Origin: Escherichia phage vB_EcoM_Lh1B
Sequence record: OK428535.1
Strand: one strand, 5' to 3'
DNA length: 64,000 bases
Part shown: positions 41,662-48,302 of the stretch, piece after piece
Numbering within the stretch: the stretch's first letter is position 1
Layout of the letters: each line of letters starts with the position of its first letter
The notes under the pieces: model-generated
Seen by the model: the letters and a program-made list of their open reading frames with translations, nothing else
Told to the model about the DNA's origin: nothing
Database searches by the model: none
Made by a program: the position numbers and the translations under genes

Positions 41662-42333
41662 TTACATGCCGAGTGACTCGGACAATGTTTTTAATCCGGT
41701 GTAATCGCGCTTTTCAGCTAACTCACGGATTTGGCGTTTGTTATCTGCCATTGCTGAGTGCAACACTTGGTCACGTGCAACAATAGCGGCCAGCAACGCT
41801 TTACATTGGGCTACTGTAAACGGACTGTGCTTAGTATTCAGCGTATCGAGCCAGTATTCTGGTGCGGTATCTGCCTGAATGTATTGACCGAGGATGGTAC
41901 GCGACGATTCATCGGCTTGAAAGTGACTACCTTCAAACTCGATATAACCATGGCGCTCATCTTCGTAGCGGTGGTCGAGTTCCAACAGCATCTTCTGCAC
42001 GTCTTCGTAAATGTAACGTGCGGTAGATTTCAGATTCCCGCGAATTTCGTCGAGGTCAATCTCCAGCACATTAGCAATAAACTCTTTCGTGCGTTTCAAT
42101 GTGAAGTTAGCTTCAATCTCCGACATCTCATACAGCTTCATGCGTGCCAGGGCTTCTTTATCAGACATCCCTTCGATGAGATGGTAATGGAGTAATGCAC
42201 AAAATCCGGTACGACCCTGATCCTGCGCACCGATTCGTTCCATGAAATTACCGTGACGATCAATCGGCAAATCACGCTGGAAATAACNGGCGCGGATCTC
42301 TTCGTTCGTTAAGCTTTTGTCAGTAACAGACAT
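41662..42333 (-). CDS. Hypothetical protein, last gene of the minus-strand fibre/rSAM operon
   Basis: 223-aa ORF with GGAGG Shine-Dalgarno; no motif assigned. Confidence 0.65.
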   Translation of the reverse strand: MSVTDKSLTNEEIRAXYFQRDLPIDRHGNFMERIGAQDQGRTGFCALLHYHLIEGMSDKEALARMKLYEMSEIEANFTLKRTKEFIANVLEIDLDEIRGNLKSTARYIYEDVQKMLLELDHRYEDERHGYIEFEGSHFQADESSRTILGQYIQADTAPEYWLDTLNTKHSPFTVAQCKALLAAIVARDQVLHSAMADNKRQIRELAEKRDYTGLKTLSESLGM

Positions 42334-42875
42334 TCGTCCTCCTCAATCAGGCCAAGTTCTAACAACAAACCGAAGTCCAGCATCTGGAAGTCCTGATCGA
42401 GGTTACCGGCCCACAACAGAGAAATGTTGTGTTGCTCTTCTTCTTCCAACTGCGGGAGCAGGTGTTCTTCGAAGATTTGACGTTCTGTGTAATAAGCGTC
42501 AACCGGGTTATTGGAGCGTAAGTTACGAATACGCATCCGCGGGAATGACAAGCCCAATGCCACTAAACTTTCAGGACTGGCTTCATCAATAGAGTGACGT
42601 AGCAGTTCGATTTTGTGGCGTGGGTATGCAAGCAGTCGCTTCTCAAAGCCAGGGTTGCGCTTTTCGATTTCCGCGACAGACTCGTGTCCTTTCTCAACGC
42701 AGTAGACCGGGATCATCACATTCAGCCCGTATTTAATCAACAGGCTTTGGATTTCATCAGTGAAGTCTTCCCCTGCCACAATTGCGTGCACATTGTACAG
42801 CTTGCTTTTGCGCAGGAAGCGATCGACCAAGTGCAGTTTACGCTTCGTAAAATTGTGAATCAGTATTGACTTCAT
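42309..42875 (-). CDS. Hypothetical protein adjacent to the radical SAM genes
   Basis: ATG at 42875 (MKSILIHNF) follows GGAG; the track's longer start at 42953 lacks an RBS. Overlaps the rSAM stop by about 38 nt. Confidence 0.55.
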   Translation of the reverse strand: MKSILIHNFTKRKLHLVDRFLRKSKLYNVHAIVAGEDFTDEIQSLLIKYGLNVMIPVYCVEKGHESVAEIEKRNPGFEKRLLAYPRHKIELLRHSIDEASPESLVALGLSFPRMRIRNLRSNNPVDAYYTERQIFEEHLLPQLEEEEQHNISLLWAGNLDQDFQMLDFGLLLELGLIEEDECLLLTKA

Positions 42876-44166
42876 TCTGGGCTCCGTTTTGTAATTTTTC
42901 TGCTTCGGCACGTTGGCGTACACAACGTGAACAATAGCACATGGATTTATCATGCAAATCTGATGCGCGAGTCGTACCAGTTTTCTGATACCAATATTCC
43001 GCCGCCATCAGCTTCGCAGTAGTCCAACCACACTGACGACGCTCGGCGTGATACGCTTTACGGTCTTCCAGTGTACCTTCACCGTTTTCGTACGATGCTG
43101 CTGCGCAGCTACCGCAGCTGTGTTTCATCGGACACCCTAAACAAGTTTCTGGGTAGTTGGTGTACTGCGTTTGAATCTCTTCTAACAGCTTACCGCCGTC
43201 CAGGCTCACAAACTCACGACCGACCAGTTCCGCTACAGCAGAGCGGGAAGTTACCGTGGACATGAAACGGTTACAACCGTAAATCTTGCGATCAAAGCCG
43301 AGACAGGTCATGTGCGTCAACGTACCGCAGTACGGTTTCAGGCGTTCTGGGTCGAGACGAACAGAGTCGTCATGTAAGAGTTTGTCACGCCAATCCGGGT
43401 CCCAAGTTGCCATAAAGTTCAGGCCATCCGGGATGATGTGCGTAATCGTGTTACGCGGGTTGGTGTGCAGACCCTTCTCAATCCAGTAGTCCATCACGTC
43501 CATCATCTGGTTCGCGATATCCAACGCCATATGGCGCGGCAGGATATCTTCGTACGTCACGTTACCAGAAATGGTACCACCGCCGGACATGTCAATTAAC
43601 GATTTCATGCTGGCGGCATAGTGCGGCAATGTATCGATCGTAAACGTCGCCTTTACGCCCAGTTCAGCGATGCCAACACTCTTCAGATAATTGTAACCGC
43701 GTACCGCAGCTTCGTACGACCCTTCACGCGTCGTGGTAAAGATACGATATTTGTCATGGACTTCAGGTAAACCATCGATGGAGACCCCAATAGACAGTTT
43801 GTCTTTCCAGCGCTCGATAATTTCTTTGTTCAGCGGACGGTCCAGAAGCGTACCGTTCGTGGAGATACTGAACATATACGGGCGATTGTGTTCTGCGCAT
43901 AACTTCTCTGCGGTTTCAAAGGCCGCCAAAAGAAGTTTAGGCTGCATGAACGGCTCACCACCGATGATATCGATGATGACTTCAACGTTCGGGATATCTT
44001 TATCACGCTCGAAACAAGCGTGGATAAAATCAATCACGTCTGCTACTTTGTTGTTACGCGGATATTTACGCTCGTAGCAGTATTCGCAGTCCAGGTTACA
44101 TGACAAGTTAGTCACAACCTGATACGTGCGTGGTGTGTACTGGATTTGCTGTTCGTTATTACTCAT
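42838..44166 (-). CDS. Radical SAM enzyme with SPASM-like C-terminal Cys cluster; candidate peptide maturase
   Basis: CNLDCEYC (CX3CX2C), GGEPF, STNGTLL and SIDG core motifs; C-terminal YCGTLTHMTC...YGC...CLGCPMKHSCGSC Cys cluster. Confidence 0.85.
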   Translation of the reverse strand: MSNNEQQIQYTPRTYQVVTNLSCNLDCEYCYERKYPRNNKVADVIDFIHACFERDKDIPNVEVIIDIIGGEPFMQPKLLLAAFETAEKLCAEHNRPYMFSISTNGTLLDRPLNKEIIERWKDKLSIGVSIDGLPEVHDKYRIFTTTREGSYEAAVRGYNYLKSVGIAELGVKATFTIDTLPHYAASMKSLIDMSGGGTISGNVTYEDILPRHMALDIANQMMDVMDYWIEKGLHTNPRNTITHIIPDGLNFMATWDPDWRDKLLHDDSVRLDPERLKPYCGTLTHMTCLGFDRKIYGCNRFMSTVTSRSAVAELVGREFVSLDGGKLLEEIQTQYTNYPETCLGCPMKHSCGSCAAASYENGEGTLEDRKAYHAERRQCGWTTAKLMAAEYWYQKTGTTRASDLHDKSMCYCSRCVRQRAEAEKLQNGAQNEVNTDSQFYEA

Positions 44167-47045: not shown

Positions 47046-47091
47046 AAAAAGTAGAACGAGCGGACTATGTCCATAAACATAGTCCGGCTCG
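47046..47091 (-). terminator. Intra-operon hairpin, possible attenuator between the fibre gene and the Cys-rich peptide genes
   Basis: cgagcggactatg...catagtccggctcg stem with a T-rich tail on the minus strand, immediately before the P1 RBS. Confidence 0.45.
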
Positions 47092-47099
47092 TAAACAAG

Positions 47100-48302
47100 T
47101 TACTTAGTACCCGCTTCAGCTTGAACATCGTCGCGCGAGGTGAGGCTGTTGTTGACGTGAACAGCAGCCTGCACAACACCTCCATACTGTTTATGGAGGT
47201 AATTCGGGTGTGGGTTATCCGCAGCCGCATGGTTCGCCAGATTCTGGTTTGCCTGCGAAATTGCGTTGGTGTTGTTTATAACCTGAGTTTTAAGACTGTT
47301 GATTTGTCCTTGCAGGTTATCAATTTGCTGTTGGAAGTCTTTGCCCTGATTCTCAAGATCCGTGACGCGCTGATTTGTTTCATTCAGTGCAGACTGAAGA
47401 TCGTTAACCATCTTCTGTAATTGCAACACCAGAGAATTAAGGTTAGCTAATGCTAACGACATTTTCTGGTAATTTTGAGCAACCACGTTAAGCTGGTCGT
47501 TCCACGCGGCTAACGAAGCCACAATTGCATCGATGCGTTGCCCCAACGCCGTGTCTGCTNCTCTTAAGTCGCCGATATCGTTGATAGTGGCGTCAATGGC
47601 AGTCTGTACACTTTGAATCAGGGCACGAATCTCCGTCTCCGTCAGGCCATTAACCTGATGAATGTCGAGATTGTGTACGTTACCTTCGGCGTTGATGTGT
47701 GTATTTAAGGCGTCGAGGAAGTCGTTTCTCAGACCGTCCAGAATACCTTTAATTTCTTCCAGCTGTACTGCAGAGCCGGAGTTAATCGCATCTTTAATCC
47801 CCGCGAGTACGGTAATGATATACTCAAAACCGTAGATATCGCCAAGGTCTTTATACGTCGGGGCGGACGGGAACGTATCGGGTACGTTTCGAAGATCCTT
47901 GAAGTCCACCACACGGTCTTCAATTTTCAGCGACGCAATCGCTTGTCGGATGCCTTCGACGTTCGCGGACTGAAAACCACCAACGACTTGCGCAGAGACT
48001 TCGATATCAGTAGGAATGGCCGAGTTAGTTACCACCACACCCATGACCACTTCGCGGTTCTTGGTCATTTTCTGATATGCAGTATGTGCAAAAATCAGTT
48101 CGTAGTCTGTGCCGCGTTTGTACGGGTAGACACCTGGTTTATTCGCAGCTGCCAAGCGGAAGGTATCCGCGTAGAAAGCTCCGTCAGGAAAAGCAAAAGC
48201 CCGGTTAACTTTACCAGAACCTAACGTAATACGCCGTGTAACGGCGTTCGACGTTAATGTCCCGGTAAGGTCGAGCGGGTACTGATGAATGATTTCGGCC
48301 AT
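47100..48302 (-). CDS. Tail fibre-like protein with gp17-like N-terminal motif and central coiled coil
   Basis: ATG at 48302 (MAEIIHQ) follows AAGGAG; track start 48338 lacks an RBS. N-terminus RAFAFPDGAFYADTFRL...KRGTDYELIF fits the T7 gp17 anchor pattern; heptad-like LANLNSLVLQLQKMVNDLQSALNETNQRVTDLENQ. Confidence 0.7.
   Translation of the reverse strand: MAEIIHQYPLDLTGTLTSNAVTRRITLGSGKVNRAFAFPDGAFYADTFRLAAANKPGVYPYKRGTDYELIFAHTAYQKMTKNREVVMGVVVTNSAIPTDIEVSAQVVGGFQSANVEGIRQAIASLKIEDRVVDFKDLRNVPDTFPSAPTYKDLGDIYGFEYIITVLAGIKDAINSGSAVQLEEIKGILDGLRNDFLDALNTHINAEGNVHNLDIHQVNGLTETEIRALIQSVQTAIDATINDIGDLRXADTALGQRIDAIVASLAAWNDQLNVVAQNYQKMSLALANLNSLVLQLQKMVNDLQSALNETNQRVTDLENQGKDFQQQIDNLQGQINSLKTQVINNTNAISQANQNLANHAAADNPHPNYLHKQYGGVVQAAVHVNNSLTSRDDVQAEAGTK

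Follow-up and report, generated by a model that had tools for sequence, protein, structure and literature searches.

The window analyzed here, 64,000 nucleotides of Escherichia phage vB_EcoM_Lh1B (record OK428535.1), comes from an SPN3US-type Salmonella jumbo phage (genus Seoulvirus). The region of interest is 98-99% identical to such phages, and versions with approximately 80% identity are found in other Salmonella and Erwinia phages. Gene products are named below after their SPN3US counterparts. Directly after the genes for gp168 and gp167, the minus strand encodes three Cys-rich proteins termed P1, P2 and P3, a gp165-like protein and the two radical S-adenosylmethionine (SAM) enzymes gp164 and gp163, which together are considered here as a candidate module for tail-fibre maturation. 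An earlier note, made from the letters of the window alone, had listed three tandem Cys-rich genes with a shared N-terminus, followed by a 295-aa protein, two radical SAM enzymes and two more open reading frames (ORFs), and all of these are present on the minus strand.

The Cys-rich proteins and their neighbouring enzymes

P1 (130 aa; 46642..47034), its 134-aa paralog P2 (46227..46631) and the short 68-aa paralog P3 (46005..46211) have a common N-terminal part of approximately 50 aa, followed by a core with a Cys at every fourth, sometimes every third, residue. These CXXX/CXX repeats hold 21 Cys in the orthologs of P1, and the CXXX core of P2 holds 20. P3 consists of the same N-terminal region, a junction motif described below and only the first repeats, with 5 Cys here and 2-3 Cys in the orthologs of the CR5/Wellington group. 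All three proteins match phrog_6085 (2.6e-35, 1.8e-41 and 2.8e-25, respectively), and P2 and P3 show weak matches to the target models TIGR04114 and TIGR04117. The Cys-rich ORFs had been proposed to be real genes, and the comparison of related phages agrees with this proposal. A Shine-Dalgarno sequence lies ahead of each of the three, the ORFs are intact in all 15 clade genomes that were retrieved, and within the clade nonsynonymous differences (pN 0.10-0.42 per site) are rarer than synonymous ones (pS 0.71-0.99). Among the gap-free columns of P1, P2 and P3, 121 of 123, 126 of 127 and 67 of 68 vary at the third codon position. The other five frames contain stops in nearly every phage, the exceptions being three cases in which a single P1 frame is stop-free. 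On this comparative evidence, the Cys-rich frame is the real coding frame of P1-P3 and is under purifying selection.

In SPN3US, the GenBank/RefSeq 'gp166' is a 336-nt ORF (46223-46558, minus strand) that lies over P2 in a different frame, and annotation is lacking for P1 and P3. In CR5, Kwan, phiEaH2 and Huxley, the annotated ORFs across P1/P2 lie on either strand. Gene callers evidently miss the Cys-rich frame, since only 18 relatives of P2 were retrieved from 5.8 billion clustered non-redundant proteins, whereas the adjacent enzyme is found on hundreds of contigs. The P1 sequence of this window is imperfect and contains 10 N bases, 8 of them in the repetitive 3' end. An AlphaFold2 model of P2 obtained from 8 sequences reached a predicted local distance difference test score (pLDDT) of 42 overall and approximately 33 in the repeat core, with no usable fold. 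The unmodified CXXX core is predicted to be disordered, which would fit a chain that needs covalent stitching to gain structure.

The genes of the small enzyme gp164 (304 aa; 44159..45073) and the large enzyme gp163 (442 aa; 42838..44166) overlap, as had been recognized earlier, and the overlap measures 8 nt (ATGAGTAA). Both enzymes carry a GGEP motif and a CX3CX2C motif that is invariant in their homologs (C28/C32/C35 in gp164, C23/C27/C30 in gp163), and both score above the gathering cut-off of Pfam PF04055 (1e-15 each; 58.8 and 55.6 bits against 29.5), so that the profile comparison confirms the proposed membership in the radical SAM superfamily. Their description as paralogs holds only in a distant sense, as gp163 and gp164 share 26% identity over 144 aa (E 1e-4). 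In the gp164 family, the SAM triad and three C-terminal Cys (C245, C248 and C274) are conserved among 15 homologs. The annotated start of gp164 in SPN3US lies 40 codons late (44954-45073 are omitted), which leaves the annotated protein without its CX3CX2C motif. One clade member (IMGVR_UViG_3300014543_000002) encodes an extra 303-aa paralog of the small enzyme between P1 and P2 (L012:4542-5453). A fusion of the small with the large enzyme, 686 aa in length, is encoded on a jumbo phage contig of 284 kb (L034:7137-9197) and flanked by fibre-like ORFs of 823-1143 aa.

Ten Cys of gp163 are invariant among 18 homologs with identities down to 32%, namely the triad of the SAM cluster and C280, C298, C342, C345, C351, C354 and C379. 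The latter seven, which correspond to the SPASM-like C-terminal cluster noticed earlier, follow the pattern C...G...C / CX2CX5CX2-3C / C, by which gp163 is classed as a SPASM-domain radical SAM enzyme with two predicted auxiliary clusters. The alignment of gp163 covers the SPASM region of CteB and anSME. A relation to peptide maturases had also been proposed and gp163 is indeed nearest to these families, with scores below their cut-offs. The best match is NCBIfam TIGR04115 ('radical SAM peptide maturase, CXXX-repeat target family'; 3e-36), followed by PapB (1e-32) and other peptide maturases, and the best solved relatives are CteB (PDB 5wgg; 7e-37) and, in second place, anSME (1e-17). The genomic context is that of TIGR04115, with the CXXX-repeat proteins P1-P3 encoded beside the enzyme, but the score stays below the equivalog cut-off (125.6 bits against 350) as it does for the PapB/SCIFF models (113.6 bits against 340 for NF047865 and 53.9 against 425 for TIGR03974). 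A fused N-terminal recognition element (RRE), the leader-recognition domain of enzymes acting on peptides made by the ribosome and modified after translation (RiPPs), is absent from gp163, whose radical SAM core begins at approximately residue 14 and aligns to residues 100-425 of CteB only. Scans with Pfam and NCBIfam found no PqqD/RRE family in any cassette protein, and scans with Pfam, NCBIfam and PHROG found no leader protease, exporter or immunity gene among the eight cassette proteins.

The gp165-like protein (295 aa; 45095..45982) is a conserved third partner of the enzymes. Its family is small, with 51 representatives among 1.84 billion proteins; the family alignment contains no conserved stretch of 7-10 residues and no significant RRE-like fold match was obtained. 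Radical SAM genes again flank two distant members that were looked up independently, and one of the two belongs to a J-like tail module whose fibre is CXXX-ended. gp165-like proteins are encoded along with the radical SAM pair in 26 loci and, in the closer set of loci, their gene occupies the slot usual for a fibre-assembly gene, with the two enzymes coming next. A role of gp165 as a fibre-specific chaperone or substrate adaptor is proposed.

The apparent transcription unit starts with the gp168 ortholog (48350..53578, minus strand), a 1742-aa baseplate/tail-fibre protein that matches phrog_7449 and phrog_2163 (virion structural protein). The next gene encodes the gp167 ortholog (47100..48338, minus strand), a 412-aa virion structural protein with a coiled coil at residues 200-370, a phrog_2163 match of 9e-109 and weak matches to tail-fibre PHROGs. 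It is found in all 15 clade loci, always directly upstream of P1, and its homologs are confined to the SPN3US clade. Downstream of gp163 follow a gp162-like protein of 188 aa (42309..42875, minus strand) and, as the last gene of the unit, a gp161-like DUF4376 protein of 223 aa (41662..42333, minus strand; PF14301 1.4e-9; phrog_8169; weak match to phrog_2837 'tail protein'). The gp162 frame is open over 214 aa (42309-42953); its true start is probably M27 at 42875, the phrog_7988 alignment begins at residue 27 and SPN3US annotates 567 nt. Homologs of gp161 and gp162 were found only in the 15 clade loci, and gp161, gp162 and gp167 were rejected as core parts of the module because this clade restriction marks them as local accessories. 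A strong hairpin (53566-53593) lies just upstream of the gp168 gene, and a strong, bidirectional terminator-like hairpin (41621..41644; 10-bp stem with 7 GC pairs, then a T run) closes the minus-strand unit. The block had been described as the continuation of a unit of four tail-fibre genes; fibre genes do lie upstream, but since the two hairpins bracket gp168 through gp161, the unit most simply holds two of them.

Co-occurrence of the enzymes with CXXX proteins in tail-fibre regions

A scan of IMG/VR with gp163 yielded 446 confirmed relatives, of which the 79 best were studied together with four found earlier (83 loci). A CXXX-run ORF, defined by a run of at least 6 Cys spaced 2-4 apart, is present in 81 of these 83 phage or prophage loci (24-100% identity to gp163), almost always on the strand of the enzyme and within a few kb of it. 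Database homologs of gp163 with 33-39% identity are also located in phage or prophage DNA and adjoin a second radical SAM gene. As a control, 80 loci from bacterial and archaeal genomes were collected in a scan with the enzyme alignment, which below E 1e-15 consist mostly of unrelated radical SAM families. CXXX-run ORFs are found in 10 of the 12 closest control loci (L090-L101) and in 3 of the 68 loci with more remote radical SAM families. These three are all six-Cys runs in Arg/Trp-rich ORFs and look spurious. The gp163-like branch is much better represented in viral contigs in the collections searched, as the best match among genome representatives reached only 31% identity.

Loci with at least 30% identity to gp163 (tier A) comprise the 15 clade loci, L007-L010, L026-L035 and L172. 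A CXXX protein is encoded in each of them except L031/L032, and most also encode a gp165-like protein together with the small and the large enzyme; a search with hidden Markov models detected no gp165-like ORF in L008, L009 and L026. L031/L032, on a 279-kb contig (IMGVR_UViG_3300006545_000001), have a gp165-like gene and both enzymes with no detectable CXXX ORF nearby; the upstream gene encodes a 97-aa Cys-free protein, and the substrate may lie elsewhere or be different. Loci with 24-28% identity (tier B) contain one enzyme, approximately 440-480 aa long, and their CXXX proteins measure 150-480 aa and have as many as 92 Cys. Proteins of 408-480 aa with 77-92 Cys adjoin single radical SAM enzymes on phage contigs (L040 and L061), and 660-aa proteins with 107-122 Cys in CXXX runs are encoded beside a related single enzyme in Margulisiibacteriota / Candidatus Termititenax genomes (L090-L092). 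These proteins would be extraordinarily large substrates for one maturase. Four CXXX-repeat proteins (P0178, P0179, P0181 and P0169) carry an N-terminal 'SRR(D/E)FFKKAAK' signal of the twin-arginine (Tat) type; they are presumably exported bacterial versions of the repeat with a biology unlike that of the phage fibre versions.

In tier A, the CXXX proteins are encoded at tail-fibre positions, with the CXXX stretch as their C-terminal end; several can be recognized as fibre proteins, and two have a Pfam tail-collar fibre domain. In the P2-like module of L027, a baseplate assembly protein, wedge J and protein I are followed by a 384-aa CXXX-ended protein, a gp165-like protein, both radical SAM enzymes, a tail assembly chaperone, sheath and tube. 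This 384-aa protein matches Pfam 'Phage tail-collar fibre, N-terminal' (PF12571) with 1.8e-40 as well as many tail-fibre PHROGs, and ends in C-terminal CXXX repeats. The CXXX protein of L010 has the same Pfam domain just above the cut-off, followed by a coiled coil and, at the end, CXXX repeats. Those of L007 and L172 contain HxHDxRYYTE repeats, which in L007 match Pfam 'Phage tail repeat like' below the cut-off, and are encoded a few genes downstream of a lambda-J-like protein, and the CXXX protein of L033 comes after a central tail fibre J protein (phrog_31 3e-282). L008 encodes a 568-aa fibre-like CXXX protein beside a T4 gp13-like neck gene, with a precomputed PF27846 match at its C-terminus. 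In tier B, the CXXX protein of L046 follows baseplate hub and wedge genes and matches phrog_6085, as P1-P3 do.

The junction motif NAD-x-(F/L)-x-G-x4-5-Y-x-C-x2-C-S-W-x-C is common to P1-P3 and the CXXX-ended fibres, and the residues before the first Cys are alike (NADQLGGQAGSYYRCSDCSWTC in L007, LGGQPPDFYTCGGSCSWSC in L008, ASKLAGQTSGYYRCSGCSWTC in L172 and NNADLFAGQGRSHYDCGGTCSFSC in P2). In view of this shared motif, the conserved 'leader' of P1-P3 resembles the terminal piece of a fibre shaft more than a leader typical of RiPPs. By location and homology P1-P3 are associated with fibres, as they lie in the fibre block and share phrog_6085 and the junction motif with the CXXX ends of PF12571 and tail-repeat proteins. 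The published virion proteome of SPN3US contains gp167-gp173, with 70% coverage of gp167 and with gp168 as a baseplate/fibre candidate, and gp161-gp166 were not detected (PMC5694885, Supplementary Table 1); a second paper (PMC5105663) likewise counts gp168 among baseplate or fibre proteins. The absence of gp161-gp166 from virions fits enzymes and helpers that stay unpackaged.

The surroundings of the block provided several further observations. The window contains 259 N bases in clusters (e.g. 46665-46709, 37000-39999 and 62000-62999), many of which fall in a 722-aa fibre-like gene (35963-38131, plus strand), and these clusters may stem from a problem with the consensus or the assembly, or else from repeat and host-range regions being polymorphic. 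The Gly-rich middle of the 722-aa protein matches phrog_2056 'tail fiber protein; host specificity' (2e-15); this protein is gp155, a head protein in the SPN3US proteome paper, which conflicts with the phrog_2056 assignment. A 163-aa ORF (40417-40908, minus strand; phrog_9559) encodes a lipoprotein-type signal ending in LLAGC and sits between strong bidirectional terminator hairpins (40384-40414 and 41621-41644), with endolysin-like genes at 38219-38836 and 39776-40291 nearby. gp157 (39125-39766, plus strand) matches phrog_1158 'tail assembly chaperone' (2.6e-63), and the same PHROG directly follows the radical SAM pair in L027 (10029-10394). This chaperone was rejected as a core part of the module, being present only in the SPN3US clade and L027.

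Proposed fibre maturation and the alternatives

The block is probably a tail-fibre maturation module and not a natural-product cluster, with the radical SAM pair modifying the CXXX region of fibre ends or of P1-P3. P1-P3 would be small fibre-associated proteins composed of a short helical N-terminal part, the junction motif and the Cys-X-X-X run, which in the SPN3US clade are split off as mini-proteins. Late in infection, gp163 and its small partner gp164 would modify the repeat region in the reducing cytoplasm by means of radicals derived from S-adenosylmethionine. The modification most likely consists of multiple thioether links, by analogy with the nearest enzymes; with many such bonds from Cys sulfur to carbon, an otherwise disordered Gly/Ser/Cys chain could become a stiff rod or knot, redox-insensitive and protease-resistant. 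We infer that covalent links made by an enzyme in the cytoplasm would achieve in a reducing cell what is out of reach for disulfides. gp165 is envisaged to replace the missing leader-recognition domain, acting as an adaptor or chaperone between substrate and enzymes from the genomic slot of a fibre-assembly protein, and the matured modules would then be built into or onto the gp167/gp168 fibres. As a wider and more tentative proposal, which we regard as quite possible, the distal fibre tip may in many tailed phages, ranging from P2-like and lambda-like prophages of 30 kb up to jumbo phages of 280 kb, be formed from a ribosomally made CXXX chain that a dedicated radical SAM pair stitches into a thioether-laddered rod within the reducing cytoplasm.

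Several observations weigh against fibre maturation. gp163 falls well short of the curated cut-off in each of the named maturase families, and Asp, Glu and Thr residues such as PapB, QhpD and CteB use are almost absent from the P1-P3 repeats. The CXXX proteins of the clade are free-standing and, with 68-134 aa, resemble a precursor peptide. Since short CXXX peptides (52-88 aa) and CXXX proteins with Tat-like signals occur in bacteria, the family also has non-fibre uses. The published SPN3US proteome could very likely not have found the unannotated P1-P3. Both the modification and the presence of P1-P3 in particles are predictions from gene content and context.

The earlier note had offered two readings of the block, a diffusible toxin or signal and the cross-linking of proteins that become part of the fibre. 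The first is that of a classical RiPP system, in which P1-P3 are precursors, the radical SAM enzymes are guided by a leader, and lysis frees the cross-linked cores, which act apart from the virion as toxin, signal or metal-binding peptide. The architecture of precursor and radical SAM/SPASM enzyme, the closeness of the enzymes to RiPP maturases, the small size of P1-P3 with their conserved N-terminal part and variable core, and the short or Tat-signal CXXX proteins of related bacterial loci all speak for such a system. Yet the cassette has neither protease, exporter nor immunity gene, gp163 lacks a fused RRE and the supposed leader bears the fibre junction motif, which weakens this reading. 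Moreover, the module lies in the tail-fibre block of jumbo, P2-like and lambda-like phages, where the CXXX region is the end of fibre proteins of 250-570 aa and no peptide. A classical RiPP system is therefore considered quite unlikely, and enzymatic cross-linking of fibre-associated Cys-rich modules, which gains from this synteny in unrelated phage types, is favoured over a diffusible product on the strength of gene content and context.

It is likewise unlikely that the repeats bind metal or iron-sulfur clusters, or serve as a transient assembly scaffold, and are neither cross-linked nor retained, the enzymes performing another change such as epimerisation or the oxidation of Cys/Ser as in anSME. 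Regular Cys spacing could chelate metals, and T4 fibre tips bind iron via regular HxH repeats. The core is without the usual thioether acceptor residues, gp161-gp166 are absent from SPN3US virions, and among the solved relatives of gp163 the second place is taken by anSME, a SPASM enzyme that modifies proteins. However, among families and structures alike, thioether-forming enzymes give the best matches and score much better than anSME, and the C/S-x-P/A-x-R motif recognized by anSME does not occur in the P1-P3 repeats. In the long fibres, the CXXX domain belongs to the fibre polypeptide and stays in the particle unless it is cleaved off. Other radical SAM genes of phages are metabolic (QueE-like enzymes, the activase of the anaerobic ribonucleotide reductase), and the two genes might accordingly be passengers with a role in auxiliary metabolism or anti-defence that stand beside Cys-rich low-complexity ORFs by chance. 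This is highly improbable and strongly disfavoured by the co-occurrence in 81 of 83 loci with conserved gene order, by the near absence of CXXX ORFs from the remote control loci, by the enzyme fusion in one locus and by the overlapping enzyme genes of this window.

Significance and closest known systems

If fibre maturation by this module is true, it would be the first case of a structural virion protein modified after translation by radical SAM enzymes, and the module would represent a new kind of receptor-binding or fibre-stabilising unit. Radical SAM chemistry would then reach beyond small peptide natural products into the construction of virus particles, and covalently reinforced fibre tips in phages that assemble in a reducing cytoplasm would be explained. 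Thioethers, unlike disulfides, survive in anaerobic, protease-rich habitats such as the gut, and many of the related contigs appear to be of gut origin. For enzymology, the module would offer natural substrates with 20 to more than 100 Cys and a partner set of two radical SAM enzymes and a gp165-like protein without the usual leader-recognition domain. Chemical hardening of the host-recognition fibre is the probable task of the enzymes, as judged from gene content. In SPN3US-type phages, which are used as candidates for therapy and biocontrol, the module points to a factor in host range and stability that has so far gone unrecognised. Amber-mutant genetics and virion proteomics already exist for SPN3US.

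The earlier note had regarded the module as undescribed in phage tail regions, and no description of a radical SAM module for fibre maturation was found in the literature searched (SPN3US, jumbo phage, tail fibre, SPASM, thioether, phage RiPP), a search with most subscription journals outside its scope. The pairing of precursor and radical SAM enzyme, by contrast, is not unprecedented, because as a sequence family it is already catalogued (TIGR04114/TIGR04115, PF27846). The module differs from that family by its second enzyme, its gp165 partner, the lack of an RRE, the sub-threshold scores and, above all, the tail-fibre substrates.

The closest system is that catalogued family of CXXX-repeat targets, with TIGR04115 as the maturase, TIGR04114/TIGR04117 as targets, and Pfam PF27846 (tSAM_targ_Cxxx_rpt). 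It shares with the phage module a period-4 Cys repeat that adjoins a radical SAM/SPASM enzyme, and the substrate of a distant phage homolog (L008) bears PF27846 itself. The phage module differs by its additional small enzyme and gp165-like protein, and by substrates that are tail-fibre ends or fibre-linked mini-proteins instead of Tat-signal proteins or short peptides. To our knowledge, neither a chemistry nor a biological role has been determined for the catalogued CXXX family. Such chemistry is established for the ranthipeptide/SCIFF maturases CteB and PapB, which both form Cys thioether links in Cys-rich peptides. The match of gp163 to CteB spans the radical SAM core and the SPASM domain, and that to PapB extends over residues 22-357. 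PapB is described as acting on repeated C-X3-D motifs (PMC10739248). In contrast, the phage repeats have no Asp/Thr acceptors, the N-terminal 100 residues of CteB (its RRE) have no counterpart in gp163, and the substrates of the phage loci reach 568 aa and 92 Cys.

The His-Xaa-Ser system resembles the module in combining a large and a small radical SAM enzyme with a short-period repeat peptide (gp163 to HxsB 4e-21, gp164 to HxsC 6e-12), but its repeat is HXS instead of CXXX, the scores are far below the cut-offs and it has no link to phages or fibres. For the assembly side, tail-fibre assembly chaperones (the P2 gpG/Tfa class and the fibre chaperone of cyanophage Pam3, 7YPX) are among the closest known systems. 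The nearest functional analogy is provided by the radical SAM/SPASM enzyme QhpD, from which the QhpC subunit of quinohemoprotein amine dehydrogenase receives its Cys thioethers. gp163 is only weakly related to it in sequence (TIGR03906 3.7e-15) and QhpC is a subunit of a bacterial enzyme and not part of a virion, but there, too, the cross-linked protein stays in a larger assembly.

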